Assembly (NCBI GenBank): GCA_048268245.1
Contig: JBLWVX010000039.1
Span: 1 to 19,153, forward strand
Direction: 5' to 3'
Length of the DNA stretch: 19,153 bases
Origin: Arcobacteraceae bacterium
Lineage (GTDB): Bacteria; Campylobacterota; Campylobacteria; Campylobacterales; Arcobacteraceae
Part shown: positions 1 to 15,825 of the stretch, one piece after another
Layout: every line of letters begins with the position of its first letter
Numbering within the stretch: position 1 is the first letter of the stretch
Notes under the pieces: generated by a model
Databases searched by the model: none
What the model saw: only the letters and a program-made list of their open reading frames with translations
What the model was told of the DNA's origin: nothing
Program-made: the position numbers and the translations under genes

Positions 1-598
1 AGGTCACTCCATGAATTAGATTTGAAAGTAAAAATGAAACGAAGATTTAAAGTAATCTCACCAAATCATTTAAATAGAGATTTTTACAGTCATTCAATAG
101 ATAAAATATATGTAGGAGATATTACATATATTCCAACTAATGAAGGATGGTTATATTTAGATGTGGTAATTGATATCTACTCAAAAAAAGTAGTTGGATG
201 GTCAATGAGTCATTCTCTTCATACTTCACTTGTAAATGATGCTCTTATGATGGCAATTAAAAGAAGAGTTCCAAATAAAGGATTAATTTATCATACAGAT
301 AGGGGGGAGTCAATATGCCTCTTATGAACATAAGAATTTACTCAATAAGTATGGAATAATTCAAAGTATGAGTAAAAAAGGTGACTGTTGGGATAATGCA
401 GTTGCCGAGAGCTTTTTTCATAGTTTAAAGACTGAGCTTATCCATCATGAGAAATTTATTTCAAGAAAAGAAGCTAATGAGAAGATATTTGAATACATAG
501 AGATTTTTTATAATAGGCAGAGATTACATTCTTCAAATAACTATTTATCTCCAAGTGATTTTGAAGATAAAATGTTACATTTAGAAATGGTTAGTTAA
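1..598 (+). pseudogene. IS3-family transposase OrfB (rve integrase core), frameshifted
   Basis: Frame 1 is open from base 1. An extra G in the G6 run (302-307) breaks the D-R-G-S-Q-Y motif; removing it joins ORFs 22..327 and 368..598 (...[35 protein letters not shown]...). Confidence 0.85.
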
Positions 599-610
599 TT
601 TAGAAATTTT

Positions 611-636
611 GTGTCCTATTTTCTGTTGACAGATCA
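611..636 (+). repeat. IS3 right terminal inverted repeat (IRR)
   Basis: Reverse complement reads TGATCTGTCAACAGAAAATAGGACAC, a typical IS3 TG...GGACA end, 13 nt after the transposase stop. The partner IRL lies outside the window. Confidence 0.75.
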
Positions 637-653
637 AGCATCTTATTATAGTT

Positions 654-1421
654 CTATATCATCCTCTCCTGCCCAATCCGATAAAGAGCAAAATCATACT
701 TCACAGGATCACTTATATCAAACTCTTTTAGTTTTTCAGTTATTAAAAGTGCTGATTTTAAATCATAGGTTTTTCTATCAAGTAAAGCTAGTTTTTGCGA
801 TACTTTAAAAGTATGGGTATCTAGTGGTAGGATTAGGTCTTTTTTGTTTATTTTTTTCCAAAGTCCCATATCAAGTTCATCTTCTCTTACCATCCATCGA
901 AGGAACATATTCCATCTTTTGTATGGGGCATTTCCTATTTCTTTTATTTTTCCTTGTTTATCTCTTTTAAAAGGACTTGATACTAAGAAAGTGAAGCCTT
1001 GTGATTTGTAGTTTGCTATTTGGTGGATTTTTGTGATTAGAGTGTCTAGACCTTCTAGGATATTATTCTCTTTTTTGTACCCTTCATAAAAAAGCTCTTG
1101 TAAGCTTTGATCTTTTTTCATTTTCGAGAAGGTTTTAAAGATTGTTTTTATATCTTCACTATTTTGAAACCTATAATAGTATCCATCTAGTTTTTCATCT
1201 ATTACCTCATCACTTTCATCTAAAAGTGAAAAGTCAAGGGAGTCTAAAAACTTTACTATTAGTCTTGCATTTCCATATGCAAAAAGTGCACATAAAAGTA
1301 TGATATATTCATCATCATATCTACTTGCCACTAAAAGTGGGTCTGGTTTATCGTATGACAATTCACAGTTATTATTTCTACTACAAACTTCTTTATCTAA
1401 AAGCTCTTTTATATTTTCCAT
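654..1421 (-). CDS. TIGR02757 / DUF2400 family protein
   Basis: Motifs ALFAYGN, YKRWNMFLRWMVR, PLDTHT and DPVKYDFALY; RBS AGGA. Confidence 0.88.
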   Translation of the reverse strand: MENIKELLDKEVCSRNNNCELSYDKPDPLLVASRYDDEYIILLCALFAYGNARLIVKFLDSLDFSLLDESDEVIDEKLDGYYYRFQNSEDIKTIFKTFSKMKKDQSLQELFYEGYKKENNILEGLDTLITKIHQIANYKSQGFTFLVSSPFKRDKQGKIKEIGNAPYKRWNMFLRWMVREDELDMGLWKKINKKDLILPLDTHTFKVSQKLALLDRKTYDLKSALLITEKLKEFDISDPVKYDFALYRIGQERMI

Positions 1422-1442
1422 AATCCTACCTAATTTTCAGTT

Positions 1443-1451
1443 TGGTATAAT
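1443..1451 (+). promoter_or_regulatory. Extended -10 promoter element of the nitroreductase-SDR operon
   Basis: TGGTATAAT (TGnTATAAT) 27 nt upstream of ATG 1479. Confidence 0.65.
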
Positions 1452-1478
1452 AACAAGAAATTAAAAAAAAGAGTTTAA

Positions 1479-2060
1479 ATGAACTATCAAAAACTAAAAA
1501 CTTTAATCCAAAATGCAAGAACTACAAGAAGATTTAAAAAAGATGAAAAAGTAAATCTTGAAGACTTAAAAGAGCTTATTGACCTAGCACGAATAACTTC
1601 TAGTGCTAAAAATATGCAACCTATAAAATACATCCTTGTTACTAAAGAAGAAGATGTACTAAAGCTAGCTAGAAGTGCTTCTTGGGCTAGTCATTTAGAA
1701 GACTGGTCTCAAAGTGAAGAAGAGAGACCAAGTGCTTTTATTTTAATGTTAAATGATCAAATGATAGATGGTTTTCCTATGTTTGATGCAGGTGCTTCTT
1801 TTACAGCTATTTCTTTAGCTGCAAAAGCAAAAGGTTTAGCTACAGCACCTCTTGCTTCAATAGATAAACAGTTATGTCGTAAGCTTTTTGTAATTCCAGA
1901 TAATCTAGATGTTATAATAGGAATAGCTGTAGGTGTTGAAGATGAAAATATCAAGCTAGTTGATACAACAAACTTTGACACAAACTACTACAGAGAAAAA
2001 AACGACACTCATTGTGTTCCCAAAAGAGCACTAGAACAAATAATCATGGGAGAGTATTAA
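1479..2060 (+). CDS. Nitroreductase family protein (FMN-dependent)
   Basis: RTTRRF, SSAKNMQP, DAGAS...ISLAAKAKGL and C-terminal PKR motifs. Confidence 0.9.
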   Translation: MNYQKLKTLIQNARTTRRFKKDEKVNLEDLKELIDLARITSSAKNMQPIKYILVTKEEDVLKLARSASWASHLEDWSQSEEERPSAFILMLNDQMIDGFPMFDAGASFTAISLAAKAKGLATAPLASIDKQLCRKLFVIPDNLDVIIGIAVGVEDENIKLVDTTNFDTNYYREKNDTHCVPKRALEQIIMGEY

Positions 2061-2084
2061 ACTCTTTTCAAAATAGGATAATAA

Positions 2085-2906
2085 ATGCAAAATATTTTAA
2101 TCACAGGATGTTCCACAGGTATTGGACTACAAACAGCAAAAACACTTAAAGACAATGGTTATAAAGTCTATGCAAGTGCAAGAGATATAGAAGATGTTAA
2201 CTCATTAAAAGCTTTAGGCTTTGAGGCACTTAAGATTGATGTTACAAAAAAAGAGGAAATTTCACAAGCTTTGAAATATATTTTAAACAAAGATGAAAAA
2301 CTGGACGCTGTTTTCAACAACGCAGGTTATGGACAACCAGGAGCAGTTGAAGATATAAGTGTAGAAGCCCTAAAAGAACAGTTTGAAACAAACTTCTTTG
2401 GTCTTCATGAAGTTACACTTCAAGCTATGAAGATTTTTAGAGCTCAAGGCTATGGAAAAGTTATACAACACTCTTCTGTTTTAGGAATAATCTCACTTAA
2501 ATTTAGAGGTGCTTACAATGCTTCAAAATACGCTATTGAAGGTTTAGCTGATACTATGAGACAAGAGCTTATGGGAACTAATATTTTTATATCATCAATA
2601 AATACAGGACCAGTTACTTCAAAATTTAGAAAAAATGCCTTAAAAAAATTCAATAAAAATATAGATATAGAAAATAGTTTTTTTAAAGATACCTATAAAA
2701 AAGAGGTAAAAACTAGACTAGAAAATGAAAAAGATACTACACCTTTTAATCTTCCAGCAACATCAGTAGCAAATGTGATTTTAGAAATCATGAAATCAAA
2801 CAATCCAAAACCAAGATATTATGTAACAAAAGCTACATATATCTTAGGTTTCTTCAAAAGAGTTTTATCTACAAGACTTTTAGATAAACTTCTAAATAGA
2901 ATATAA
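2085..2906 (+). CDS. Short-chain dehydrogenase/reductase (YbbO-like SDR)
   Basis: TGCSTGIG, NNAG and YNASK (YxxxK) motifs; RBS AGGA. Confidence 0.93.
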   Translation: MQNILITGCSTGIGLQTAKTLKDNGYKVYASARDIEDVNSLKALGFEALKIDVTKKEEISQALKYILNKDEKLDAVFNNAGYGQPGAVEDISVEALKEQFETNFFGLHEVTLQAMKIFRAQGYGKVIQHSSVLGIISLKFRGAYNASKYAIEGLADTMRQELMGTNIFISSINTGPVTSKFRKNALKKFNKNIDIENSFFKDTYKKEVKTRLENEKDTTPFNLPATSVANVILEIMKSNNPKPRYYVTKATYILGFFKRVLSTRLLDKLLNRI

Positions 2907-2934
2907 AGAGAAAGTTTTAAACCTTCTCTTTATA
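2902..2934. terminator. Probable bidirectional terminator hairpin between the SDR and Thg1-like genes
   Basis: TATAAAGAGAA (2902-2912) pairs with TTCTCTTTATA (2924-2934); the hairpin overlaps both stop codons. Confidence 0.65.
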
Positions 2935-3681
2935 AATATTTTTTACAACTTTTGAAAACTCATCAATTGTTTGAAAAGTATATTTATCTAATTTATCAGA
3001 ATCTGTAGGAATATATAAAGTTGCTAAACTAAATATTTTTTCAACATCATTTAATAAGTTTAATTCTTTTATTTTCAAACAATAGTAATCTATGTTATTG
3101 TAATTTAATTCACTATATAACTCATCATCACAAACACCTTTAATTCTCAATAATTTAGATATTGAATTTCGAATAAAAATCGCATACCTATATATCAAGT
3201 AATTAGATACTTGTTCCAATGAATTTAATATAATCGGACGACCATCAAAAGCACCTTTAATCTTATTATCTTTATTTATTGATTGAGAACCTGACATAGT
3301 AAAAAAAGAACTAAAAGTTGATGCTAATGTAGTGACAGTTTTAAATGTCCTTCTTTCATATTGTTTTTCATTAGGGTTTAAAACTATAGAAACTTCATCT
3401 GAACAAATAATGAAACCTAAAAAAATATTCTTTTCAATATTATCTTTGAAATTCTTATACAATACACCATACGTTGAATATAAAGATTGAATCATTAGAT
3501 TATTAAATCTTTTATTACTCATACTATTTTTTAGATATTTTTTGCTTAAACCTATTCCATCAAGTCTAACACATAAATATTTATCTTCATTATATTTAGA
3601 TATTACCTCAGACTCTTTTTCAATTTCTTTAAAAGACAAGTCTAATTCACAATATTTTTTTAACATTTGTTTATTTAACAT
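2917..3681 (-). CDS. Divergent Thg1-like protein (tRNA(His) guanylyltransferase family / 3'-5' polymerase)
   Basis: Thg1 motifs in the expected order: VRLDG (R39, D41), SDEVS (D95, E96), RRTFK (K114), FDGR (R148) and YLIYR...RN (N172). Confidence 0.85.
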   Translation of the reverse strand: MLNKQMLKKYCELDLSFKEIEKESEVISKYNEDKYLCVRLDGIGLSKKYLKNSMSNKRFNNLMIQSLYSTYGVLYKNFKDNIEKNIFLGFIICSDEVSIVLNPNEKQYERRTFKTVTTLASTFSSFFTMSGSQSINKDNKIKGAFDGRPIILNSLEQVSNYLIYRYAIFIRNSISKLLRIKGVCDDELYSELNYNNIDYYCLKIKELNLLNDVEKIFSLATLYIPTDSDKLDKYTFQTIDEFSKVVKNIYKEKV

Positions 3682-3818
3682 TATTTACCTTTTGAACCTT
3701 TATTATTTGGATTCATTTGAGCACCTCTATTTCCATGAACTTTTGCATTTGCATTATTTGTTCCACTTGTACCTTTATTTGAATTAGCTTGATTTGCTTT
3801 ATGATTATTATTTGCCAT
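3681..3818 (-). CDS. 45-aa Asn/Gly/Lys-rich small protein, not in the ORF track: MANNNHKANQANSNKGTSGTNNANAKVHGNRGAQMNPNNKGSKGK
   Basis: ATG at 3818 with a strong RBS AAGGAG just upstream; its TAA overlaps the Thg1-like ATG (TAATG at 3683-3679); codons end almost entirely in A/T. Confidence 0.85.
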   Translation of the reverse strand: MANNNHKANQANSNKGTSGTNNANAKVHGNRGAQMNPNNKGSKGK

Positions 3819-3891
3819 AATAAACTCCTTTTAAATTTTCTGATAATATAATTTAATATTTAATCAGTAATGTAAGTATTACAAAGAACAA

Positions 3892-3913
3892 GGGGACAAA
3901 ATTGGGGACAAAA
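3892..3913 (+). repeat. Tandem direct repeat GGGGACAAAA x2 (12-bp period), candidate operator
   Basis: Copies at 3892-3901 and 3904-3913, flanking the TTG start at 3902; G-rich against a very AT-rich background. Confidence 0.7.
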
Positions 3914-4222
3914 GTTGGTAGTAATAAAAATTTTAGAAAATTATGGGAAATCTTTTATAAAGAAATTCAAACAAACAAAAAATTTACCCCTAAAACATTA
4001 CATGGATTTAGTAAATATTACATTGAAGGAAATCCTCATATCGAGACAACAGCAAAAAATTTAAAAAGAAAACTTGAAAGATGGAAAGAAAGAATAGAAA
4101 CAAATAACAACTTTCAAAATAATACATATCTTGAGCTTGAAGAATACTATAAGTTTATAAAAAGTTCATATTTTAAACATGAATTATTAGAAGATGAAGA
4201 TATCGAACACTGGTTCGATTAA
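3902..4222 (+). CDS. Hypothetical 106-aa protein, possibly a DNA-binding regulator
   Basis: TTG start after AAGGGG; TATAAT at 3848-3853; basic, probably helical core (KNLKRKLERWKER) and acidic tail. No family recognised with certainty. Confidence 0.65.
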   Translation: MGTKVGSNKNFRKLWEIFYKEIQTNKKFTPKTLHGFSKYYIEGNPHIETTAKNLKRKLERWKERIETNNNFQNNTYLELEEYYKFIKSSYFKHELLEDEDIEHWFD

Positions 4223-4710
4223 TCTTCTTTTGATGAACATTTTTTATATTTTTTTTCTAATTCATCTTCAACCCATGCTTTATCTTTTGAAAGGGTCTTT
4301 GTAATAAAAGAACTCATCTTTTTTACCACACAAAAACAATTATCCCTAACTTCATCAGTAGAACCAAATTTATCAATACATTTTTTCATCATTTTGTATT
4401 CAGTTTCAAGCTTAGTTCTAGCAATAACTGCGTATGTTAACACAGCTGTTCCTGATACATATAAAACCTCACTTGAAACTAACTCTTTATCTTCTAATAC
4501 TGCTCCAGCAGACACTCCTGCCATTAAACTTCCCAAAATTACAATTCCATTTGATTTATATTTAACCATAGAGCCATTTATTGGCTTTTTACAATTTTTA
4601 CATTTAATTGTTTGAGAAAGATTAATTGTATTTTCTTCTTCACAATGGTGACATTCTACTATTAAAGCTGAATCATCATTTTTTGTTAATAGTTTTTCGT
4701 TGTTTGACAT
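4219..4710 (-). CDS. Hypothetical zinc-ribbon membrane protein with a Cys-rich C-terminal domain
   Basis: CHHC...CKNC pair, hydrophobic segments GIVILGSLMAGVSAGAVL and VLYVSGTAVLTYAVIA, four C-terminal Cys (C, CFC, C). Confidence 0.75.
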   Translation of the reverse strand: MSNNEKLLTKNDDSALIVECHHCEEENTINLSQTIKCKNCKKPINGSMVKYKSNGIVILGSLMAGVSAGAVLEDKELVSSEVLYVSGTAVLTYAVIARTKLETEYKMMKKCIDKFGSTDEVRDNCFCVVKKMSSFITKTLSKDKAWVEDELEKKYKKCSSKED

Positions 4711-4787
4711 AGTACTCTTTTAAATAATATTTTAATAAGGTATTATATATTAAAAATTTAAAAATTATATAAAATATGTAAGGATAT

Positions 4788-4817
4788 AAAAAGAAGGAAT
4801 TAAATTCCTTTCTTTTT
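4788..4817. terminator. Intrinsic terminator after the NhaC-family gene
   Basis: AAAAAGAAGGAAT-TAA-ATTCCTTTCTTTTT hairpin with A/T tails on both sides, directly at the stop codon. Confidence 0.75.
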
Positions 4818-6522
4818 ATTTTGTTATGTAAGCTTTCCCATAAAATCTGATTACTAAGAATACTACAAGTAATCCAATTGGTAATAAGAAGTATACAGGT
4901 ACTCCAAATGCAGCTGGGATATATCCACAAACAATAGCAACAGCCCCTACAAACAATGCATAAGGTAATTGCGTAGCGATGTGATCCATGTGGTTACAAG
5001 ATGAAGCCATTGATGATAAGATAGATGTATCAGAAATAGGCGAACAATGATCCCCAAAAATAGCACCTGTTAATACAGCCCCTACATTTAGGACAATATA
5101 ACTATGAAGTTCATTCCCTTCTAAACCTGTATGAATTCCTACAGCACTTGCTAAAGGAATTGTTAAAGGCATTAAAATTCCCATTGTTCCATAAGATGTT
5201 CCTGTTGAGAAAGAGATGATAGAACCAAGTATAAAAATCACAGTTGGTAAAATAAACTGAGGTGTACTATCTGATAAAAGTGTTACAAGATATTGAGCAG
5301 TTCCTAGCTCTTTCATCACAGAAGATAAAGACCAAGCAAGGATTAAAATCACAGCCGTAATAACTAAAGCTTTAACTCCATAAACCCAAGTCTCAATAGC
5401 TTCATGTAATGAGAAAATCTTTTGTTGTAAACCCATACCAATAGCAACAAGAGAAGCTAATAATGCAGCTTCAAAGATTACAATAGAAGCATCAGCAGCA
5501 CCAAAAGCTTCTCTAATTGCTTCAAAAGAGTAAGGAGCAGCTTCTACAATCTTTAAAGCTTCACCTTCAAGTCCTGAAACACCATTTACATAAAATCCTA
5601 CAATAGAAACTATAATAAGTACAAAAATAGGAATAATTGCATTAAAAATAGAATAAGTAACATCTTCTTTAGGCATCATAAATGAGTTTTCTTGATTCAT
5701 TAAAGTACTATCTGTTTTAGGGTTTGTTAATTCACCTTTTTCATATGCTCTTTTTGAAGCTTCATACATAGGTCCAAAATCTCTAAGTGTGAAAGCTGTA
5801 AAGAAAACAAAGGCAAGCATTAGGATATTATAAAATCTATAAGGAAGTGTTTCTACAAAAACAGCAAAAGCATTTACCTCTGGCTGTCCAATAGCAACAT
5901 AGGCATCTTTAATAAGTGATAGCTCATATCCAACCCAAGTAGAGATAAGTGCAAGTCCTGCAATAGGTGCAGCTGTTGAGTCAATAATAAATGCTAATTT
6001 TTCTCTAGCAACTTTTAGTTTATCTGTTACAGGTCTCATAATAGGCCCAACAACTAATGAGTTTGCATAATCATCAAAGAAGATAAAAAATCCCATTACC
6101 CATGTATAAAGTTGTGCAGTTGCAGGAGTTTTAGCTTTTGAAGCAAGCTTAATAGCAATAGCTCTAGGCCCTCCCATTTTTGTAATAACAGCAATCATAC
6201 CACCAATTGTTAGAACTTGAAGAACAATACCTGCATTCCATGAGTCTGCAAGGGAACCAACCATTTTTGATGACATATCAACTAAAGCATTAAAAAAAGT
6301 TGCGAAGATATTCGCACCTGTGATATTTACCATAAAAGTTCCGGTAAATATACCCATAAATAAAGAAAAGATTACATTTCTTGTTACAAATGCTAATACA
6401 ATAGCAACTAATGGAGGAAGTAAGGTTAAAGCTCCAAAGGTAACAGAATTATCTTTTGTATCTGCTAGTAAGGCTATAGGAAGAATAGCTACTAGTATAA
6501 AAGTTTTTAAAAAACTAGTCAA
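4816..6522 (-). CDS. Na+/H+ antiporter NhaC family protein
   Basis: FFDDYAN, REKLAFIIDSTAAP, FSTGTSYGTMGI and GAIFGDHCSPISDT motifs. Start moved to TTG 6522 because AAAGGA precedes it and TATAAT lies at 6559-6554. Confidence 0.9.
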   Translation of the reverse strand: MTSFLKTFILVAILPIALLADTKDNSVTFGALTLLPPLVAIVLAFVTRNVIFSLFMGIFTGTFMVNITGANIFATFFNALVDMSSKMVGSLADSWNAGIVLQVLTIGGMIAVITKMGGPRAIAIKLASKAKTPATAQLYTWVMGFFIFFDDYANSLVVGPIMRPVTDKLKVAREKLAFIIDSTAAPIAGLALISTWVGYELSLIKDAYVAIGQPEVNAFAVFVETLPYRFYNILMLAFVFFTAFTLRDFGPMYEASKRAYEKGELTNPKTDSTLMNQENSFMMPKEDVTYSIFNAIIPIFVLIIVSIVGFYVNGVSGLEGEALKIVEAAPYSFEAIREAFGAADASIVIFEAALLASLVAIGMGLQQKIFSLHEAIETWVYGVKALVITAVILILAWSLSSVMKELGTAQYLVTLLSDSTPQFILPTVIFILGSIISFSTGTSYGTMGILMPLTIPLASAVGIHTGLEGNELHSYIVLNVGAVLTGAIFGDHCSPISDTSILSSMASSCNHMDHIATQLPYALFVGAVAIVCGYIPAAFGVPVYFLLPIGLLVVFLVIRFYGKAYITK

Positions 6523-6616
6523 AATAATCCTTTTATAAAAAATCAAAGCAATTATTATACTCTTAAATTTCTTTAAAGTTACAAAATAGTTAGAATAAAT
6601 TAGTTTTTTATAGTCT

Positions 6617-7264
6617 TTATTGTTGTTTCATACTTTCAATATGCTTTGAGATAAGATTATAAATAGAGCTTTCTAAAAGCTTCAAAAATTGACTTTTATT
6701 TATAAAAACATCTGTAAGTCTAAAGTCTTCTTTTAATACATCTGTTTCATTTACTAAATCTTTCACATAAAGTTCTTGACCGTTTGTATTCACAATTCTT
6801 ACTTGCATGTAAATTTTCATATAAGCAGCCTTTGCAAAGAAACTCTCATCAATCTCATACTTTTTTACATAAAGATTTATTATTGTATCTGCACCAAAAG
6901 GAACAAATCTATTTTTATAAAAACTATCCTCACTCATTTGCTTTGCAAATGAGTCTTTGATTTTATCTTCAAGAGATATATTGTATTTTTGTAAAGCTCT
7001 TTGAAAATTTAAACCCTCAGAGTTTTTTATATCAGGTCTTACACTACTTCCAACATGAATACCAACATGCTTTGAAACATATCCACCAAAACCTAGATTT
7101 AGAGATACTGGTGATTTTACAGTTTGAGCAGGTTGTGATACTACAACATAATCATTTAAAGATATAGATTTGATTTGTTTATTAAAATTTATTTGATTTG
7201 TTGAAGAACAAGCTGTAAGAAATAAAATTGTTGTAAAAAGTAAAGAGTATTTGAAAAAATACAT
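6617..7264 (-). CDS. Putative lipoprotein of unknown function
   Basis: Signal peptide with lipobox FLTA-C; RBS AAGGA; TAAAAT upstream. Confidence 0.75.
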   Translation of the reverse strand: MYFFKYSLLFTTILFLTACSSTNQINFNKQIKSISLNDYVVVSQPAQTVKSPVSLNLGFGGYVSKHVGIHVGSSVRPDIKNSEGLNFQRALQKYNISLEDKIKDSFAKQMSEDSFYKNRFVPFGADTIINLYVKKYEIDESFFAKAAYMKIYMQVRIVNTNGQELYVKDLVNETDVLKEDFRLTDVFINKSQFLKLLESSIYNLISKHIESMKQQ

Positions 7265-7316
7265 GATAATCCTTATATTTATTTTTTATATTTTATCATA
7301 ACAAATATAAGGTGTA

Positions 7317-7342
7317 TAAAAGAAGAAGTTATTCTTCTTTTA
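7317..7342 (-). terminator. Terminator after fccB
   Basis: TAAAAGAAGAA-GTTA-TTCTTCTTTTA hairpin 7 nt beyond the stop codon. Confidence 0.7.
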
Positions 7343-7349
7343 CACTTGA

Positions 7350-8627
7350 TTATCTAAATACGTCAGCCATTTGGTTTTCATACCAAGCAACAGCATATTC
7401 TGCTTCTAAATTTCTAAATGACATAGAAGCATTCATTGGACTTAATCCACCAGCACCTGCAACTTTTTCAATTTTATCTTCATGTGCTTCATATACAGCA
7501 GCAACTGAAATACCATACTTTGGTGCAATTAAACTATAACAAGTATTAGCTAACTTTGGAGGGTTTACAACAGCTTGCTTTCTTAAAAGTCTTGAGATTT
7601 GTAAAGCTGCAACTTTTGCTTGTGAGTTAGCAGAGAAACCAGATTTTGGCATCTTTGTAGCAATCGAAGCATCACCAATTACGTGTACATTTTTTACAAG
7701 TCTTGATTCAAAAGTTTTAGTATTTACAGGACACCAATCACCTTGAGTTAATCCTGAATCAAAAGCTAATTGACCTGCTTTTTGAGATGGGATATAGTTT
7801 AGAACATCTGCTTTAACAATCTCATCTTCAGTAGTTATCTCTAATTTCTTAGGATTAACTTCTAAAACCTTACCACCAAATTCAGCACTTCTCCACTCAA
7901 TCATATCACCATAAAGTTTTTCCCAGCCTTCTTGGAATAATCCTTGTTTAGAAAACTTATTTTTTTGATCTAAAATAATAATCTTAGAATTTGGTTTATG
8001 AGTTTTTAAATAATGAGCAACTAATGAGATTCTTTCATAAGGTCCAGGAGGACATCTAAATGGATTTGGTGGTGCTACCATCACATAAGTTCCACCATCA
8101 TTCATACCTTCAAGTTGTTCTCTTAAAAGTGTAGTTTGAGCTCCAGCTTTATATGCGTGAGGTGCATACATTTCAGAACCTTCTACATAACCTTTATCAT
8201 ATTTGAAGTCTATTCCTGGAGAAACAACAGCTCTATGATAAGGAATAACATCGCCATTTTCTAAAATTACACTATTTATAGCTCCATCAACTTTTTTAAC
8301 TTTTGCATGAATAACTTTTACTTTGTATTTACTCTCTAAAGTTTTATAGTCATGTTTGATATACTCAATATCATTTAAGCCTGCGATTACAGTATTTCCA
8401 AATGGACAAGTATAATACTCTTTATTTTGCTCAATTAAAATAACTTCTGTTTCAGGGCTAAATTTTTTAAGGTATTTTGCAGCAGTTGCCCCACCAAAAC
8501 CTCCACCTACAACAACAACTCTTTTTTTATCTTTAGGTAAAGAAACACTTGTTAAACTACTACAAGCAGTAAAAGAAAGAGCAATAGATCCAACAAGTAA
8601 TTTGTTAAAATTTCTTCTATTCATCAT
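7350..8627 (-). CDS. fccB: Flavocytochrome c sulfide dehydrogenase, flavoprotein subunit (FccB/SoxF)
   Basis: Tat motif NRRNF, GGGFGG Rossmann motif, YYTC (covalent FAD Cys), RCPPGPYER, MPKSGFSANSQAK and NTCYS. Confidence 0.92.
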   Translation of the reverse strand: MMNRRNFNKLLVGSIALSFTACSSLTSVSLPKDKKRVVVVGGGFGGATAAKYLKKFSPETEVILIEQNKEYYTCPFGNTVIAGLNDIEYIKHDYKTLESKYKVKVIHAKVKKVDGAINSVILENGDVIPYHRAVVSPGIDFKYDKGYVEGSEMYAPHAYKAGAQTTLLREQLEGMNDGGTYVMVAPPNPFRCPPGPYERISLVAHYLKTHKPNSKIIILDQKNKFSKQGLFQEGWEKLYGDMIEWRSAEFGGKVLEVNPKKLEITTEDEIVKADVLNYIPSQKAGQLAFDSGLTQGDWCPVNTKTFESRLVKNVHVIGDASIATKMPKSGFSANSQAKVAALQISRLLRKQAVVNPPKLANTCYSLIAPKYGISVAAVYEAHEDKIEKVAGAGGLSPMNASMSFRNLEAEYAVAWYENQMADVFR

Positions 8628-8637
8628 CTTTTATCCT

Positions 8638-8934
8638 TTATCTCTTAACTTTTGAAAAATAGTAGGCTATTTGTTCTAATTCAGCATCAGTGAAACCTTT
8701 AGTGTGCTTTTGCATCATAGTTCCTTCTTTTTTACCATATTTGTAATCAAGAAGTGTTTGATACATACTAGCTTTACCCATTCCAGCTATATATGGAGTA
8801 ATCATTTCTGATTTACCATCTGTACCATGACATGATGCACACGATAATGACAACATTTTCCCTTGTAGTTCATCATACTCTACTCCAAATGATAAACTAT
8901 AAAGAGACACAAGAATAACTGCTATCCTTTTCAT
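8638..8934 (-). CDS. fccA: Monoheme cytochrome c subunit of flavocytochrome c
   Basis: Sec signal peptide, single CASCH, distal GTMM; lies immediately upstream of fccB. Confidence 0.85.
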   Translation of the reverse strand: MKRIAVILVSLYSLSFGVEYDELQGKMLSLSCASCHGTDGKSEMITPYIAGMGKASMYQTLLDYKYGKKEGTMMQKHTKGFTDAELEQIAYYFSKVKR

Positions 8935-8959
8935 ATTAACCCCTTTGTGCTTTTAGTTT

Positions 8960-8991
8960 TGTTGAGTTCTTCACTCAACATTTAAATTATA
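8960..8991 (-). promoter_or_regulatory. fccAB -10 box plus an 8-bp inverted repeat at the predicted transcription start
   Basis: TATAAT on the minus strand at 8991-8986; TGTTGAGT-N5-ACTCAACA at 8960-8980. Confidence 0.55.
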
Positions 8992-9022
8992 AAATATAAA
9001 CATAACAAAAACATAGCATTTT

Positions 9023-9823
9023 TTATGTTTTCTGAATTTCTTTTTGATTTGCTTTTGATTGAAGATAATCTGATATTTGCATCAGACAAAATGTTATGAT
9101 AAAAATCATAAGACCTGGGAAAAAACTAACCCACCAAGCGATGTCTATAACAGCCTTTCCATCGCTAAGAAGCGATCCCCATGACATATCAGGAGGATTT
9201 ATTCCAAGTCCTAAAAAAGAAAGTCCTGATTCAGCTAATATAGACCCACCTACTCCGAATGTAAATGAAATCAAAAATATAGGTGCTAATAATGGCGCAA
9301 AGTATTTAAAAATAATCTTAAAAGTAGAAACATTAGCTAGTTTTAAAATTTTTATAAAAGGTCTGTTACTTATAGCAAAGCTTTCACTTCTAATTAACCT
9401 TGCCATACCCATCCAACCCGTAATTGATATTACTATGATTAAAATAAGTGCTGATGCTTGAATATAAGAAACAAGTGCTAAAAGTAAAAAGAAAGTTGGG
9501 AATGTTAAAAATAAATCAATTATTATAGTAATTGATTTATCTATATTACCTTTAAAATAACCGGCATTTATCCCAATGAAAAGTCCAATTATTGAAGAAA
9601 TAGCTGCAGCTAAAAATCCAATAATAAGTGAAGTTTGACCACCTTCTAAAACTCTTGCTAAAACATCTCTTCCAAGTCTATCTGTGCCAAATAGATGTTC
9701 TAAAGATGGAGCTTGAAGAATTTTGTCAGGGTTTAATTCATATGGAGATACAGTATAAATAAAGGGCATTAAAAATACTAATAAAATAGTAGTAATTAGC
9801 AAATATAAAGCCCATTTAAACAT
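9023..9823 (-). CDS. ABC transporter permease, DppC/OppC family
   Basis: HLFGTDRLGRDV, GWMGMARLIR and AESGLSFLGLG...SWG motifs. Confidence 0.92.
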   Translation of the reverse strand: MFKWALYLLITTILLVFLMPFIYTVSPYELNPDKILQAPSLEHLFGTDRLGRDVLARVLEGGQTSLIIGFLAAAISSIIGLFIGINAGYFKGNIDKSITIIIDLFLTFPTFFLLLALVSYIQASALILIIVISITGWMGMARLIRSESFAISNRPFIKILKLANVSTFKIIFKYFAPLLAPIFLISFTFGVGGSILAESGLSFLGLGINPPDMSWGSLLSDGKAVIDIAWWVSFFPGLMIFIITFCLMQISDYLQSKANQKEIQKT

Positions 9824-9826
9824 ATC

Positions 9827-10426
9827 TTAGTTCTCATCCTTATATGTATAATATGAAAGTGAACTCTTACCAAATTTTTTAGTTTTATTTAAACTAAATT
9901 TACCTAAAACCTCTGGCATTTCAAGAGTTGATACATGCTCAATTATAACAATATAAATATTATCATTTTCAATCTCTTCTATCATTTTAAAAGATTTATC
10001 ATAAATCTCTTCCATTCCATCTCTATAATCAAATGGAGGATCAACATATAAAATAATTTCATCTTCAGAGTTTTTTAAACTATTTAAAATAGTTGGCGTT
10101 TGAACAAAAGTATCACCTTGCATAGTTTGACATGAATTCATATCTAATGACTTACAGTTTCTAACTAAAATATTATAAGAGTTTCTATCTAATTCAACAA
10201 AGTATGCTCTTTTTGCATCTCTACTTAAAGCTTCTAATCCAATAGATCCAGAACCAGCAAAAGACTCTACAAAAATCTTATCAATTATATCAAACTGTAA
10301 TACATTAAATAGTGATTCTTTCAATCTAGCTTTTGAACTTCTTGTAACTTCTAAAGAAGGTAGTTCTAGAACCTTCCCTTTATATTTTCCTGCAATGATT
10401 TTAGTAGTTGGTTTATTTCTTTTCAT
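9827..10426 (-). CDS. rsmD: 16S rRNA m2G966 methyltransferase
   Basis: IIAGKYKG, KESLFN, FAGSGSIGLEALSR and DPPF motifs. Confidence 0.93.
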   Translation of the reverse strand: MKRNKPTTKIIAGKYKGKVLELPSLEVTRSSKARLKESLFNVLQFDIIDKIFVESFAGSGSIGLEALSRDAKRAYFVELDRNSYNILVRNCKSLDMNSCQTMQGDTFVQTPTILNSLKNSEDEIILYVDPPFDYRDGMEEIYDKSFKMIEEIENDNIYIVIIEHVSTLEMPEVLGKFSLNKTKKFGKSSLSYYTYKDEN

Positions 10427-10446
10427 ATTCTTCTTTATCTTTAAAT

Positions 10447-11991
10447 TTATCTAGCGTATGATTCAGCTCTTAGTTCTCTAATAACATTTACTTTAATCTC
10501 ACCTGGATATTGAACTTTTTCTTCAATCTCTTGGGCAATTTCAGTAGCTAAGATAACTGCTTCATCATCATTTACAAGCTCTGCTTGAACAATAACTCTA
10601 ACCTCTCTACCTGCATTAATTGCATAAGCATTTAATACACCTGTTTTTGCTGTAGAGATTTTTTCAACCTCTTCAACTCTTTTTAGGAAACTTTCAAGTA
10701 CTTCTCTTCTTGCACCTGGTCTTGCTGCACTTAATGCATCAGCTGCACAAACAGCCGCACTTTCTACATTTATAGGTTCTTCATGACCATGATGTGCATA
10801 AATAGCATTTATTACAGTATCACATTCATCATATCTTCTACAAATTTCAGCACCTAAATGCACATGTGAACCTGGCATTTCATGTGTTAAAGCTTTTCCA
10901 ATATCATGTAAAAGTCCTGCTCTTCTTGCTAAGATAGCATCTCCACCCATTTGAGCTGCTAATAATCCTGAAAGATGAGAAACTTCTAAAGTATGCGCAA
11001 GTGCATTTTGACCATAAGAAGCTCTATATCTTAACTTTCCAACAAGTTTTACAAGCTCTGGATGCATAGATTTAATTCCTAATTCAAGAATAACATCTTC
11101 ACCCTCTTTATGAATATTTCTATCAAATTCAGCTTTTACATTTTTGTAAACTTCTTCAATTCTTGCAGGTTGAATTCTTCCATCTTCTAATAACTCTTTA
11201 ATAGTTTTTGTTGCTACTGCTCTTCTATAAAGATTAAAAGAAGAGATTGTAATAGTATTAGGAGTATCATCAATAATAATATCAACACCCATTAACATTT
11301 CAAGGGCTTTGATGTTTCTTCCTTCTTTACCAATAATCTTACCCTTAGTTTCTTCATCACTTAAAGGAATATTATTGATAAGTCTTTCAGCTGCAAATTC
11401 ACCTGCATATCTTGTAACAGCATGTGATAACATATTATTAATCTCATTTTTACAGTTTTGCTCAGCTAACTTATATTTTTTTCTAAATATTGAAGCGATT
11501 TTAGCTCTTGAGTCTTCTTTAACTTTTTTAATCATTAAATCAGTAGCTTCATCTTCTGTAAGACCTGATGCATTTTCTAAAATCTTAATAGCTTCTGCTG
11601 TTTTTTCTTCATAAGTTTTCTTTTGCTTTTTAAGCCCCTCTTTTAAAGTACTTAACTTATTGTTTTTATCAACAATCTGTTCTTTTTCTTCTTTTATTGC
11701 ATTTAATTCTTTCTCTAAATGCTCATTTAATTCTTTCTCTTTTTTCTCAATTTTTGCAAGCATAGCATCATAATCTCTTCTTGCATTCTTAAACTCTCTA
11801 TCACAGTCGTTTTTTGCTTTTAACTGTGCTTCTTTTAAAGCAACTTCAGCCTCATGTTCTATAACCTTAGCTTTCGCTTTTGCTTGTTCTATGAAAACTT
11901 GAAGTTTTGCCTTATCAATTTTTCTTACTACAAAAATACTAATTGCAGAACTTAAAAGTGCTACAACTCCTCCTACGATAATATATTCCAT
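10447..11991 (-). CDS. rny: Ribonuclease Y
   Basis: N-terminal TM helix, coiled coil, KH domain (IIGKEGRNI), HD domain (LLHDIGK) and ADALSAARPGAR. Confidence 0.97.
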   Translation of the reverse strand: MEYIIVGGVVALLSSAISIFVVRKIDKAKLQVFIEQAKAKAKVIEHEAEVALKEAQLKAKNDCDREFKNARRDYDAMLAKIEKKEKELNEHLEKELNAIKEEKEQIVDKNNKLSTLKEGLKKQKKTYEEKTAEAIKILENASGLTEDEATDLMIKKVKEDSRAKIASIFRKKYKLAEQNCKNEINNMLSHAVTRYAGEFAAERLINNIPLSDEETKGKIIGKEGRNIKALEMLMGVDIIIDDTPNTITISSFNLYRRAVATKTIKELLEDGRIQPARIEEVYKNVKAEFDRNIHKEGEDVILELGIKSMHPELVKLVGKLRYRASYGQNALAHTLEVSHLSGLLAAQMGGDAILARRAGLLHDIGKALTHEMPGSHVHLGAEICRRYDECDTVINAIYAHHGHEEPINVESAAVCAADALSAARPGARREVLESFLKRVEEVEKISTAKTGVLNAYAINAGREVRVIVQAELVNDDEAVILATEIAQEIEEKVQYPGEIKVNVIRELRAESYAR

Positions 11992-12000
11992 TTTAAAACC

Positions 12001-12540
12001 TTAACTAGTAATTATATAATCTGCTTGAATATCGTGGTCTTCTGAGAGTATTTTATCGCTTTTACAAAGTGTTAGTTGAGTAAAGACTATTTCAGGTATG
12101 TACCCTAATCTACCAAAAAATCTATCATACATGCCTTTACCAAAACCTATACGTTTACCTATAATATCAACCCCAACAACAGGAACTATAGCCATATCAA
12201 TTTTTTGTGCTTTGAAAAAAGAATTATTTGGTTCTTTTATTCCAAATTTTTTCCCATGTAAAGGTAATCTATACTTAACAATTTTAAAACTATCTTCATA
12301 CATAAAAGGAACATAAATATTCTTATTTTTATCTTTTCTTAATTTATTTATTAAAGGTTTTGTATCAACCTCTGTTCCTAAAGGTATATACAATAATATA
12401 TTTTTTGCTTTACTCTTATCTATTAAGTTTTCTAACTTTCTAATAATTATTTTGTCTTTATAAAACTTTGAAAAACGACTCGAAAACTCTAATTTTTTTA
12501 TACACGATTTTCTAAAATCACTTTTGTGATTTACATTCAT
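12001..12540 (-). CDS. 5-formyltetrahydrofolate cyclo-ligase
   Basis: FGIKEP, IVPVVGVD and RIGFGKGMYDR motifs. Confidence 0.93.
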   Translation of the reverse strand: MNVNHKSDFRKSCIKKLEFSSRFSKFYKDKIIIRKLENLIDKSKAKNILLYIPLGTEVDTKPLINKLRKDKNKNIYVPFMYEDSFKIVKYRLPLHGKKFGIKEPNNSFFKAQKIDMAIVPVVGVDIIGKRIGFGKGMYDRFFGRLGYIPEIVFTQLTLCKSDKILSEDHDIQADYIITS

Positions 12541-12553
12541 ATTTAAGCCTCAC

Positions 12554-12574
12554 TTGGGTAGAATTCTAACCCAA
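12554..12574. promoter_or_regulatory. Symmetric bidirectional promoter element
   Basis: TAGAATTCTA palindrome (12559-12568) gives TAGAAT on both strands, flanked by TTGGG/CCCAA, in the 61-bp gap between divergent genes. Confidence 0.55.
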
Positions 12575-12601
12575 CAAATAATTTTACCCAAAGGAATTAA
12601 A

Positions 12602-13159
12602 ATGCAGTTTAAAACCTTGGCATTTTTGTCTATTTTATCTATTTTATTCTTTACTGGATGTAGTTCAGAAGATAAAAAAACAACAGATGTTACACAAGAA
12701 GAAACAGTAATTAAAAACTTAAATGAAATAAGTTTAACTACAATAGATAATAAAACTATAACAATTATAAACGATAATAATACATATAAAATAAAAGAGT
12801 ATCCTAATAAAATTGTACTATTAAACTTCTTTGCAACTTGGTGTCCACCTTGTAAAGCTGAAATTCCAAACTTGATAACTTTACAAGAAAAATACCAAGG
12901 TGATTTCAAAGTTATATCAGTATTACTTGAAAAAAATAAATCAAATGAAGAAATAGTAGAGTTTTCAAATAAGTTCAATATAAACTATGATGTAACGAAC
13001 ACAGAAGATAATTTTAAACTAGCAGATAAAATTGGTCCAATAAAGTCAATTCCTTCAATGTTTATGATAGACAAAAATGGTGAAGTTTTTCAAAAGTATG
13101 TAGGTATTGTTCCTGTTGAAATGATGGAATTAGATTTAAATAAATTATTAAAAAAATAG
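12602..13159 (+). CDS. TlpA-family thiol-disulfide oxidoreductase lipoprotein
   Basis: Lipobox FFTG-C and NFFATWCPPC. Start moved to ATG 12602, which follows AAGGAA. Confidence 0.92.
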   Translation: MQFKTLAFLSILSILFFTGCSSEDKKTTDVTQEETVIKNLNEISLTTIDNKTITIINDNNTYKIKEYPNKIVLLNFFATWCPPCKAEIPNLITLQEKYQGDFKVISVLLEKNKSNEEIVEFSNKFNINYDVTNTEDNFKLADKIGPIKSIPSMFMIDKNGEVFQKYVGIVPVEMMELDLNKLLKK

Positions 13160-13169
13160 AAGGTAATTA

Positions 13170-14327
13170 ATGTTTAGTTTTTTTAAGAAAAAGAAAAAAG
13201 AAGAACCAAAAAAAGAAGAAGATCAACAACTTCAAGAAGTTCAAGAGGTTCAAGAAGAGATAAAAGAGCAAGAAGTTCCTGTACAAGAAGAAACTAAGAT
13301 AGAAGAAATATCTGTACAAGAGGAAATTAAAGAAGAAACAGTTGAAAAAGAAGAAATAACTCAAGAGCTTCAAAAAGAGAATAAAGAACAAGAAGAACAA
13401 AAAGTTCAAGAAGAAGTAAAAAAAGAAGAGTCTAAAAGCCAAGAGAAAAAAGGCTTCTTTACAAGAGCATTAGAAAAAACCTTTGGAAATATCAAGTCTG
13501 TTATTCCACAAAAGCAAGAAAAAATTGCCTTTGAAGATATTGAAGAAATGCTTATTGAAGCAGATATGGAGTATGAAATCATTGAAAAAGCTATGGATGG
13601 ATTACCAGAAGAGATTACAAGAAAGCAGTTAAGACATAGACTTGTAATGTTATTTGAACATGCACCTGATGTTGATTTATCAAACCTTCCAAAACCTTTT
13701 GTAAGATTAATTATTGGGGTAAATGGAGCAGGAAAAACTACAACTATTGCAAAACTTGCTAATAAATCTAAAAAAGAAGGTAAATCAGTAATTTTAGGTG
13801 CTGGTGATACATTTAGAGCAGCTGCAATTGAACAACTTTCAACTTGGGCAGATAAATTAGATGTTCCAATTATTAAAACAAAACAAGGGCATGATGCAAG
13901 TGCAGTAGCCTATGATACTATATCTTCTGCAACAGCAAAAGGTATTGATAATGTAATTATTGATACAGCAGGAAGATTACAAACACAAACAAACCTAAAT
14001 AATGAGCTTAAAAAAATAGTAAAAGTTTGTAATAAAGCATATGAGGGAGCACCTCATCAAAAACTTATGATTTTAGATGGTACACAAGGTAATACAGCAA
14101 TTGCACAAGCAAAAGCCTTCAATGAAATAGTTGGAGTTGATGGTATTATTGTTACAAAACTTGATGGTACTGCAAAAGGTGGAGCATTATTCTCTATCTC
14201 AAATCAACTTGAATTACCTATCTTCTTTGTTGGAGTTGGTGAGAAACAAGATGACCTAATCGAATTTAGTCCAGATGATTTTGTTGATAGTTTATTAGAT
14301 GAAATCTATACACCTGAAGATAATTAA
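13170..14327 (+). CDS. ftsY: Signal recognition particle receptor FtsY
   Basis: Acidic N-terminal region, GVNGAGKTT, DTFRAAA, DTAGR and TKLDGTAKGG. Confidence 0.97.
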   Translation: MFSFFKKKKKEEPKKEEDQQLQEVQEVQEEIKEQEVPVQEETKIEEISVQEEIKEETVEKEEITQELQKENKEQEEQKVQEEVKKEESKSQEKKGFFTRALEKTFGNIKSVIPQKQEKIAFEDIEEMLIEADMEYEIIEKAMDGLPEEITRKQLRHRLVMLFEHAPDVDLSNLPKPFVRLIIGVNGAGKTTTIAKLANKSKKEGKSVILGAGDTFRAAAIEQLSTWADKLDVPIIKTKQGHDASAVAYDTISSATAKGIDNVIIDTAGRLQTQTNLNNELKKIVKVCNKAYEGAPHQKLMILDGTQGNTAIAQAKAFNEIVGVDGIIVTKLDGTAKGGALFSISNQLELPIFFVGVGEKQDDLIEFSPDDFVDSLLDEIYTPEDN

Positions 14328-14349
14328 AGAGAAACCTCTCTTTAATTAT
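14320..14349. terminator. Bidirectional terminator between ftsY and the esterase gene
   Basis: 13-bp stem ATAATTAAAGAGA-AACC-TCTCTTTAATTAT containing both stop codons. Confidence 0.7.
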
Positions 14350-15369: not shown

Positions 15370-15422
15370 GAGTTTAGCCTTTATATTTAAAATTGAAGGA
15401 TTTTATCATAGTTTTTTATTTA

Positions 15423-15719
15423 TTAAACTTTTGTTTCTCCACAATTCCAACAAACATTAAATTGTCCTTCATGAACCTCGCCACATTTTTGACATATCCA
15501 AGAGGATAAGTTCTCATTTTTTACATCGATGATAGCTTTTGCTTTTTCAAGATCTTCTTCTTTTACAAGAATAAATACACCTATTGTAGCTTGCAGGTGA
15601 GGATGCATACCTCCTGCATCATCTTTGTCAATAATGGCTTCTATATTTTCATCACTTAAATGTGTAACTAAAACTTGTGCTTCCATTTCGCTATAAACTT
15701 TTTTTAGTTCTACAAACAT
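15423..15719 (-). CDS. DUF2007-like small protein with a C-terminal zinc ribbon
   Basis: EAQVLVTHLSDENIEA...VKEEDLEKAKAII followed by WICQKCGE...FNVCWNCG. Confidence 0.8.
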   Translation of the reverse strand: MFVELKKVYSEMEAQVLVTHLSDENIEAIIDKDDAGGMHPHLQATIGVFILVKEEDLEKAKAIIDVKNENLSSWICQKCGEVHEGQFNVCWNCGETKV

Positions 15720-15825
15720 AAATATCCTTAATTATATAATCTTAAAATTATAACATATTGCAATATTTTTAAATCCATAATAAAAATTTCACTATAATTG
15801 CACCAAGATATAAATAGGAACACAT

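Follow-up and report, generated by a model that had tools for sequence, protein, structure and literature searches.

The stretch of DNA analysed here, called the window below, is 19,153 nucleotides (nt) long (GenBank assembly GCA_048268245.1, contig JBLWVX010000039.1, positions 1 to 19,153 of the forward strand) and comes from an Arcobacteraceae bacterium of the Campylobacterota. Its reverse strand carries a small gene for a 45-aa peptide rich in asparagine, glycine and lysine, followed immediately by the gene for a Thg1-like protein (Table 1). The comparisons reported below firmly establish that the peptide is a conserved small protein and that its gene stands first in exchangeable cassettes in which toxin and defence genes abound; the gene behind it is referred to as its cargo. 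The translation given in an original prediction, which had singled out this peptide, matches the open reading frame (ORF) exactly, and a direct count confirmed the composition stated there, with 13 Asn, 6 Gly, 6 Lys and 6 Ala and no Asp, Glu, Phe, Trp or Tyr. Asparagine accounts for 29% of the peptide (13/45 codons), the only hydrophobic residues read from the sequence are one Val and one internal Met, and the net charge is about +7, which makes the peptide strongly basic. The strong AAGGAG ribosome-binding site (RBS) that had been described is present, and an AAAGGAG-like Shine-Dalgarno sequence is kept across 12 aligned Arcobacteraceae upstream regions. The translational coupling proposed for the pair also agrees with the letters, as the last A of the peptide stop TAA (3683-3681) is the first base of the Thg1-like ATG (TAATG), and the last peptide codons, S-K-G-K, double as Shine-Dalgarno sequence for this overlapped start. 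The junction ...AAAGGTTCAAAAGGTAAATAATG is conserved ahead of both HicA and Thg1-like cargo; at the cargo-less locus L008, a single case, it has decayed to AAACAATCAAAAAGTAAATAG (codons K-Q-S-K-S-K) and the AAAGG is gone.

Upstream of the peptide gene, a TAATAYT box and a small palindrome are found in the alignment of the 12 Arcobacteraceae regions, the arms of the palindrome varying between loci. In the window and in L001-L007 the palindrome lies between the box and the Shine-Dalgarno sequence, and its arms differ yet stay complementary (CTGAT/ATCAG, GTGATTT/AAATCAC, GTTGTTT/AAACAAC), so that it could be an operator or a hairpin of the 5'-untranslated region. Predicted RNA folds of the 5' region are weak (z -0.18 in the window; below -2 in 1 of 12 loci), and no Rfam element matched at the peptide locus. 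On the far side, a terminator-like hairpin closes the pair against the convergent SDR gene, and the overlapping ORFs together with this hairpin argue that, as judged from the sequence, the peptide and Thg1-like genes form a compact two-gene operon. Each of the two genes occurs once in the genome to which the window belongs (2.68 Mb, 99.3% complete). No RNA runs are on record for the window stretch. Three wastewater contigs from one study, whose runs are RNA only by a guess, end at 3836, 7 nt after TATTAT, and so hint, though weakly, at a transcript start. Contigs of about 93% identity covering the Thg1-like and peptide genes were found in four wastewater runs, again of one study and with a guessed RNA status; they mean that the pair exists in a relative, and transcription is not implied.

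Table 1. Positions of the peptide gene, its signals, its cargo and further features; numbers refer to the window unless preceded by the handle of another locus (L).
Feature	Position	Strand	Basis or remark
45-aa N/G/K-rich small protein gene (P0001), conserved lead gene	3681..3818	-	ORF translation, homologues, codon alignment
Shine-Dalgarno AAGGAG of the peptide gene	3825..3830	-	read from sequence; 6 nt 5' of ATG
AAAGGT within the last peptide codons (K43-G44), embedded Shine-Dalgarno for the downstream gene	3687..3692	-	6 nt before Thg1-like ATG
Promoter region with -10-like boxes TAATACTT (3880-3873) and TATTAT (3848-3843) and small palindrome CTGAT (3867-3863)...ATCAG (3844-3840)	3840..3880	-	read from sequence
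Thg1-like 3'-5' nucleotidyltransferase (P0002, 254 aa; activity predicted), exchangeable cargo	2917..3681	-	Pfam, AlphaFold2, Foldseek, motifs
Terminator-like hairpin, 15-bp stem and T-rich tail, spanning the Thg1-like stop	2902..2934	-	2 terminator-like sites found against 0.2 expected in shuffles
Replaced segment: Thg1-like in the window, NYN-domain gene in the ~92%-identical relative L001	2907..3680	-	blastn
106-aa ORF, divergent from the peptide gene	3902-4222	+	
163-aa ORF	4219-4710	-	
Flavocytochrome c sulfide dehydrogenase pair	7350-8934	-	
Upstream solenoid-type proteins	L002:2030-3283; L006:2008-3906; L075:760-3870	same as peptide	PDLC02908
Downstream all-alpha protein of ~520 aa (one of 20 loci)	L041:4173-5717		
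Peptide with GT4 and radical-SAM/SPASM cluster	L069:4173-8077; L075:4445-6899		
Protein of 92-98 aa with N-terminal peptide domain	L009:4743-5039 (= L093:2246-2542)		
Peptide before HicA, decayed to a fragment	L104:1113-1250	-	
Acidic ORF family of 32-41 aa	L108:575-673; L109:257-382; L115:1305-1430		
Acidic ORF family of 32-41 aa	L113:2350-2475	-	

The peptide belongs to a large family. A word-indexed search returned 54 homologues at E<=0.01, with lengths of 41-76 aa and 58-96% identity to the query, and a profile search of 1.84 billion protein cluster representatives gave 346 family representatives at E<=1e-3. A scan of 185,579 species genomes, with one genome per species, yielded 274 tblastn-confirmed loci, and the best 80 of these 274, which were examined further, span Campylobacterota, Bacteroidota, Gamma- and Betaproteobacteria, Mycoplasmatota and Desulfobacterota. 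Viral contigs contributed only 2 loci among 2.9 million; phages and plasmids gave no tblastn match, which says little as the low-complexity filter was on. Models of Pfam, NCBIfam and PADLOC gave zero matches with the peptide, no antitoxin family was matched by any of 55 family members scanned at E<=10, a search of the ESM Atlas led only to unnamed clusters, and the peptide motif strings are absent from the full-text literature searched, which did not cover supplements; within that scope, no family model or paper was found. The earlier suggestion of a widespread and unannotated small-protein family is thereby supported, as is the statement that members of it are mislabelled 'alpha-amylase', since 4 of the 54 homologues bear this name in UniRef or NCBI.

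Conservation at the codon level, whose absence had been named as a refuting result, was found in an alignment of 73 genes, where the diversity at codon positions 1, 2 and 3 amounts to 0.33, 0.24 and 0.63. Residues N12, N14, G16, T17, G19, N21 and Q34 are invariant, H6, R31 and P37 nearly so, and the GT(S/N)G(T/V)N core does not vary; as third positions are saturated under invariant residues, selection acts on the protein and is purifying. Together with the homologues, this codon pattern shows that the ORF is more than a chance reading frame. An AlphaFold2 (AF2) model built on a 55-sequence alignment reached a mean pLDDT of 60.6 with no residue at 70 or above, a low confidence that fits a peptide which is probably disordered. 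An internal pseudo-repeat (residues 5-14 and 29-38) had also been proposed, and hhalign of the N-terminal against the C-terminal half recovered the same register, but the match is weak (P 4e-4, probability 34%); the halves are much more alike in some relatives, for example in L049. Fused long forms were also considered, and the two longer proteins found at E<=0.01 were rejected because they look like start-codon miscalls. A few of the cluster representatives are real fusions (P0165, P0186, P0239, P0108), for which Pfam gave only a weak N-terminal match to Glyoxalase_8. A few hundred bases past a peptide-HicA pair, a second copy of the peptide domain stands at the start of a protein of 92-98 aa whose C-terminal extension is acidic (...TPEQRM.KAKIWL.LD...EDEYL; L009, the same as L093, and P0108).

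The Thg1-like protein P0002 matches Pfam PF04446 with 53.1 bits (cut-off 29.2) over profile positions 5-128 of 130, and with 54.4 bits in the search of the whole genome. Its AF2 model has a pLDDT of 93.1, and all 32 PDB matches that Foldseek found for this model at E<=1e-3 are Thg1 or Thg1-like proteins (TLP), with TM-scores of about 0.5-0.65. The catalytic carboxylate motifs RxDG and SDE (R39, D41, G42, D95, E96) do not vary among 46 relatives and line up with RVDG and SDE of the C. albicans Thg1 (3wbz). By sequence and model, P0002 is a genuine member of the Thg1 family, for which 3'-5' addition to tRNA 5' ends is only predicted. At E<=0.1, PADLOC-DB v2 gave no match for the peptide, the Thg1-like protein or either of the two ORFs upstream, and no paper was found that ties Thg1-like proteins to toxin-antitoxin (TA) systems or defence in this sense.

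A census of the genes downstream of the peptide, which together with the homologue search had been suggested as a check, was carried out for the 80 loci. As downstream gene we took, on the strand of the peptide, the first ORF with a length of 70 aa or more and a start no more than 210 nt past the peptide stop; families were obtained by BLASTP clustering and named from Pfam, PADLOC and NCBIfam. Such a gene is present in 59 of the 80 loci, and the census returned at least seven unrelated follower families that recur, together with 10 singletons. The families are an all-alpha solenoid protein of about 520 aa without a Pfam family (17 loci, or 20 with L051, L054 and L071), proteins of about 220-250 aa with a weak N-terminal helix-turn-helix (HTH; 11 loci), pVip-kinase fusions (7 loci; PADLOC PDLC02905 at E 8e-295 and NCBIfam viperin_w_prok with 321 bits, cut-off 180), HicA_toxin (5 loci) and, with 3 loci each, Thg1-like proteins, a 213-aa protein and bpMoxR followed by a vWA protein. 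The singletons include NYN, HsdM, GT4 followed by a radical-SAM (rSAM)/SPASM gene, AIR synthase and a class II aminoacyl-tRNA synthetase. The pVip-kinase matches nucleotide-acting viperin models over its full length. Across several phyla, the junctions ahead of toxin or defence genes are overlapped or measure 2-70 nt. Among the genes flanking the peptide (Pfam, 121 ORFs at 23 loci) are restriction-modification, Mrr, GmrSD, BrxC/D, Tn3 and TnsA transposases, integrases, AlpA, MazF, ORF6N and a CI repressor, and the neighbourhoods of the peptide are defence-island and mobile-element territory. No paper was found under the name 'bpMoxR', and the literature search gave nothing relevant that joins pVip with ankyrin.

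No neighbour of the peptide is as common as the all-alpha family (25 of 80 loci, three phyla), which is placed downstream at 20 loci (L041 and 19 others), upstream on the same strand at 3, and as divergent remote homologues at 2. The Atlas model of the all-alpha protein is similar (TM 0.68 by query) to 887-aa ankyrin proteins in their non-ankyrin part, and the N-terminal part of the PADLOC model 'Ankyrin' PDLC02908 matches the proteins just upstream of the peptide in L002 (E 1.5e-43), L006 (E 2.6e-31) and L075 (E 1e-18). In L075 this protein is a 1036-aa ankyrin/solenoid protein directly upstream of the peptide, and it aligns with the downstream all-alpha class (BLASTP E 6e-17). The divergent upstream proteins of L009 and L042 (527-530 aa) are the remote solenoid homologues (hhalign probability 82%, E 1e-5). 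The window and its genome have neither the solenoid protein nor the pVip-kinase. Behind the peptide of L069 and L075 stand genes for a GT4 glycosyltransferase, a radical-SAM/SPASM protein, a tyrosine-phosphatase-like protein and an O-methyltransferase, clusters that, by their make-up, look like peptide- or nucleotide-modifying ones.

Exchange of the cargo was seen in pairwise comparisons of loci. In blastn comparisons with L001, positions 473-4138 of that relative correspond to 7321-3681 of the window and positions 4863-7115 to 2906-655, so that colinearity stops at 3681, the last base of the peptide stop, and resumes at 2906, where the SDR gene ends. The peptide itself is 100% identical in the two, and the replacement gene of L001 is assigned to Pfam NYN at E 1.9e-27. 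Four further comparisons break at the peptide stop or within about 25 nt of it, namely L009 with L042 and L003 with L004 (both HicA against Thg1-like), L003 with L001 (HicA against NYN), and L004 and L007 with L008 (Thg1-like against none). Since L002, L005 and L006 share solely a stretch of about 500-600 nt with peptide and HicA, this pair also moves as a unit. The cargo is exchangeable, and the Thg1-like gene is one cargo among many. A near-identical peptide (85-100%) precedes HicA, NYN, two other Thg1-like subtypes (28-30% identical to that of the window) or nothing, and the proposal that the peptide is a partner, substrate or primer specific to the Thg1-like enzyme gains no support from this variety of followers, which always switch at the peptide stop.

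Within the Arcobacteraceae, the peptide occurs in 22 of 184 genomes and in 10 of 22 genera, where it is followed by HicA (10 genomes), a Thg1-like gene (6), NYN (1), a 117-aa ORF (1) or no or only a remote gene (4), the cargo starts overlapping or abutting the peptide stop. In the 10 genomes with HicA the peptide gene lies directly upstream of the toxin gene with an overlap of 0 to -3 nt. A search of the 184 genomes with Pfam Thg1 found 4 genes, all 4 directly after the peptide, and two genes of the L004 type stay below the threshold. A HicA query found 13 places in 12 genomes. The peptide, decayed in one case and a variant in another, stands ahead of all of the 10 closest matches (47-100% identity), and at the 3 distant ones, with 39-41% identity, this overlapped upstream slot is taken by a 75-aa ORF. 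This ORF looks HicB-like, with E 2.5e-4 against PDB 2yzt and E 0.48 against HicB3 (4p78); the label is a weak one. At 8 peptide-HicA loci, none of the 50 ORFs of 40-200 aa that lie within 1.1 kb of HicA matched a HicB Pfam family. As the peptide occupies the overlapped slot that a HicB-like ORF holds elsewhere, it sits where an antitoxin sits. In the genome with the decayed peptide (L104), HicA is followed by a 45-aa, extremely acidic, D/N-rich ORF with an NNPNND motif, which may be an alternative partner.

The Thg1-like protein of the window shares 40-53% identity with enzymes of Endozoicomonas, Amphritea, Neptunomonas, Vibrio and Photobacterium and only 28-30% with the other Arcobacteraceae Thg1-like proteins, whose peptides are about 90% identical to that of the window. 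In a quick maximum-likelihood tree with midpoint root, it falls with the gamma-proteobacterial group, and a branch with SH-aLRT 100 separates it from L004, L042 and L097. Judged by these sequences, the peptide does not co-diverge with its cargo. Ahead of eight gamma-type Thg1-like genes, a different, acidic small ORF stands in four cases and none in four; a metagenome scan with the Thg1-like alignment had given 4 loci, and the 60-residue fragment L110 was left out of this count. The acidic ORFs (L108, L109, L113 and L115) are 32-41 aa long, begin with M[ED][KQ]HDWDNYSRQLDPEHDAYWQSRG... and are of the 'DNYSRQLDPEHDAYWQSRG' type. A Q-L-[ND]-P core is common to this family and the peptide, and homology of the acidic 41-aa ORF to the peptide was dismissed as not significant (hhalign E 0.058). 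Both motif types occur in tandem in proteins such as P0104 and P0139, the only link between the two families.

As the architecture is TA-like and the peptide stands in the HicB-like slot, the preferred reading is that the peptide gene heads two-gene conflict cassettes and that its product acts in an antitoxin-like or regulatory way, whatever the effector, a tentative reading that we hold at somewhat less than an even chance. Among the alternatives offered by the original prediction, 'antitoxin-like partner' fits the architecture best, but its tie to the Thg1-like enzyme has to be given up. What was observed is that the peptide is conserved and under selection as a protein, that the genes are arranged as described, that cargo is swapped at the stop codon among defence and mobile-element genes, and that the peptide is the positional equivalent of the HicB-like gene; to this the preferred reading adds a neutralising or regulatory role and lability of the peptide and toxicity of the Thg1-like protein. 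On this reading, the peptide is the invariant first gene of a compact cassette of lead peptide and cargo in defence islands and mobile elements, its gene supplying a promoter, a strong RBS and, within its own last codons, an RBS and an overlapping start for the next gene. The peptide would be made in excess over the coupled cargo. Because no stable fold is predicted, the peptide would probably be labile, and it may restrain a potentially toxic RNA- or nucleotide-directed enzyme or tie the expression of this enzyme to ongoing translation. The Thg1-like enzyme of the window would be a conflict effector, either toxin or defence protein, and not a housekeeping tRNA-His enzyme.

Several observations weigh against an antitoxin-like or regulatory lead peptide. 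In 21 of the 80 loci the peptide has no close same-strand downstream gene; 5 of these loci have less than 1.2 kb of sequence past the peptide, and 3 (L051, L054, L071) carry the solenoid gene by hidden Markov model, the longest solenoid ORF there overlapping the peptide. A few downstream genes look like housekeeping ones (AIR synthase, class II aminoacyl-tRNA synthetase, redoxin), and the peptide precedes none of the eight gamma-type Thg1-like genes, of which 3 are metagenome loci and 5 were found in 301 genomes of the gamma-proteobacterial family to which L037 (Vibrio salinus) belongs. The peptide is basic, as HicA-type RNases usually are, which disfavours a classical acidic antitoxin, and it contains no HTH, ribbon-helix-helix or AbrB DNA-binding domain and no confident AF2 fold. 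Its identity of 60-93% beside unrelated partner folds argues against partner-specific interfaces. Viperins of the pVip type work when cloned alone, and binding and neutralisation of the cargo by the peptide, like toxicity of the cargo, are steps that we only infer.

Some of these points are shared by a rival explanation with an appreciable, if minor, chance of being right, in which the peptide is an autonomous small basic protein (for example a nucleic-acid-binding protein, a stress protein or an RNA chaperone) and its gene merely an expression slot and recombination anchor with which downstream genes hitch-hike. The loci without a close follower (21 of 80, and 4 of the 22 in Arcobacteraceae with none or a remote one), the housekeeping look of some followers, the near-invariance of the peptide whatever follows and its basic, N/G-rich sequence without a confident fold, like RNA-binding tails, agree with such a protein, and the RNA-chaperone variant, which the original prediction had also listed, keeps some probability because the peptide is basic and three cargo families are RNA enzymes. 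An autonomous protein sits poorly, however, with the patchy, accessory occurrence of the peptide (22 of 184 family genomes; 274 loci in 185,579 species genomes), with its recurrence in several phyla before toxin or defence genes at overlapped or 2-70-nt junctions, with peptide and HicA moving as a unit, with HicA that would be hard to keep without any antitoxin and with the decay of the embedded Shine-Dalgarno sequence upon cargo loss in the single case L008. The same junctions could instead mean that the ORF acts in cis as a leader, its Asn/Lys-rich translation setting that of the cargo by termination-reinitiation and perhaps sensing the supply of Asn-tRNA or Lys-tRNA or ribosome stalling. 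The TAATG overlap, the cargo Shine-Dalgarno sequence within the last codons, a coupling conserved before HicA and Thg1-like genes and the 13 Asn among 45 codons all speak for this explanation. It is nevertheless quite unlikely, because residues other than Asn are invariant (G16, T17, G19, Q34) or nearly so (H6, R31, P37) with saturated synonymous sites, which points to selection on the peptide itself across phyla, because stand-alone copies exist, and because neither an alternative terminator/antiterminator between the overlapping ORFs nor an Rfam element was found.

Chemistry on the peptide would be a different matter, and that it is a substrate (a precursor resembling those of ribosomally synthesized and post-translationally modified peptides (RiPPs), a protein modified by nucleotidylation on Ser/Thr of GTSGT, by GT4 glycosylation or by radical-SAM chemistry, or a primer) we consider very unlikely. 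The invariant GT(S/N)G(T/V)N core, the GT4, radical-SAM/SPASM, phosphatase and O-methyltransferase genes after the peptide in L069 and L075, and the radical-SAM enzyme (pVip) and the nucleotidyltransferase among the other followers may be counted in its favour. On the other hand, HicA, NYN, MoxR and the solenoid are not peptide-modifying enzymes, the pVip-kinase matches nucleotide-acting viperin models over its full length and Thg1 enzymes work on the 5' ends of RNA. The peptide is conserved from end to end and lacks the variable core typical of RiPP precursors, no maturase lies in the window, and GT4 with rSAM/SPASM follows the peptide in only 2 of 80 loci, so that the earlier idea of a nucleotidylation substrate or protein primer gained nothing from the data. 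Nor was anything gained for the equally early suggestion of a prion- or amyloid-like signalling motif, on which a partner would be made to aggregate. We hold this to be highly improbable; the peptide has hardly any hydrophobic residues and carries a net charge of about +7. The suggestion could draw on the 29% Asn, on an N-x-G-x-Q element (N30-R-G-A-Q34) and on a possible resemblance to fungal and bacterial amyloid signalling motifs. The gene, however, is free-standing and not a motif common to an NLR/STAND protein and an effector, no such neighbour exists in the window, and only 2 of 5 long forms (3 of 6 typed in one set and 2 in another) fuse the peptide to anything and look like start miscalls.

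Among known systems, the antitoxin-like or regulatory reading has its closest counterpart in the type II TA pair HicB-HicA, where a small upstream gene likewise overlaps the HicA start in compact, mobile modules of defence islands, and the same bacterial family has in this slot either the 75-aa HicB-like ORF (3 HicA) or the peptide (10 HicA). Unlike HicB, to which it has no sequence or domain relation, the peptide is basic, without confident fold or DNA-binding domain, and serves unrelated cargo without co-diverging; neutralisation by it would be a further assumption. BrxR/CapW WYL proteins and CapH-CapP are conserved small accessory genes that head diverse defence operons; they differ from the peptide, which has no known domain, in being folded proteins of known domain content that bind DNA or act as proteases. 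The antitoxin domain PanA is folded and measures roughly 150 aa. This hyperpromiscuous domain (DUF4065, Panacea) is one upstream partner of many unrelated toxin families in phage-defence-linked two-gene modules (PMC8832971, PMC10440598) and forms complexes with its cognate toxins (PMC8832971). The peptide resembles it in being one conserved upstream gene paired with many unrelated families, but it is a nearly invariant, low-complexity sequence of 45 aa, and this near-invariance makes partner-specific binding less likely than for PanA. The PADLOC families 'Ankyrin' PDLC02908 and pVip-kinase fusion PDLC02905 are frequent neighbours of the peptide family (25/80 and 7/80 loci); compared with those loci, the window is a minimal form with peptide and Thg1-like gene. 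In comparison with solved Thg1 and TLP structures (PDB 4kgk/4kgm, 5axk-5axn; eukaryotic 3wbz, 3otc), P0002 has the full Thg1 fold and the catalytic carboxylates but is only 15-20% identical to them; its type is accessory (4 of 184 family genomes by Pfam), always stands after the peptide there and is swappable with HicA or NYN. This context suggests a conflict role for the Thg1-like protein over housekeeping tRNA repair.

Divergent from the peptide gene lies a 106-aa ORF that starts with a GTK repeat encoded by a TTTTGTCCCC tandem, and next to it a 163-aa ORF whose relatives in L001, L004, L007 and L008 start with paired CxxC motifs and which, by sequence, looks like a zinc ribbon. No significant family match was obtained for either. 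The two ORFs are syntenic with the peptide in several Arcobacteraceae loci (L001, L003, L004, L007 and L008) though not throughout the family; the 106-aa protein is 53% identical to the L004 copy and has no significant match to the neighbour in L010. Further away, the window encodes a flavocytochrome c sulfide dehydrogenase (FCSD flavoprotein and small cytochrome c), and its remaining genes are ordinary housekeeping ones (RNase Y, FtsY, RadA, YbeY, Fur, RNase H).

Carried to its widest form, the idea of an antitoxin-like lead peptide would amount to an undescribed modular conflict architecture, which we regard as rather unlikely: a 'fuse' peptide common to all such cassettes, probably disordered and produced early and in surplus, would silence any of a dozen unrelated effectors for as long as it is being made or stays intact, until its phage-triggered loss or modification releases them, the Thg1-like 3'-5' polymerases would be immune or toxin effectors acting on host or phage tRNA 5' ends, and the acidic ORF family would play the same role in gamma-proteobacteria. 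For members of the family named 'alpha-amylase', a recurring misannotation is corrected here. If the peptide controls the genes that follow it, toxin and defence modules would share a control element of general use; new effectors could then be found by inspecting the genes after the peptide, and bacterial Thg1-like reverse polymerases would acquire a testable role in conflict.

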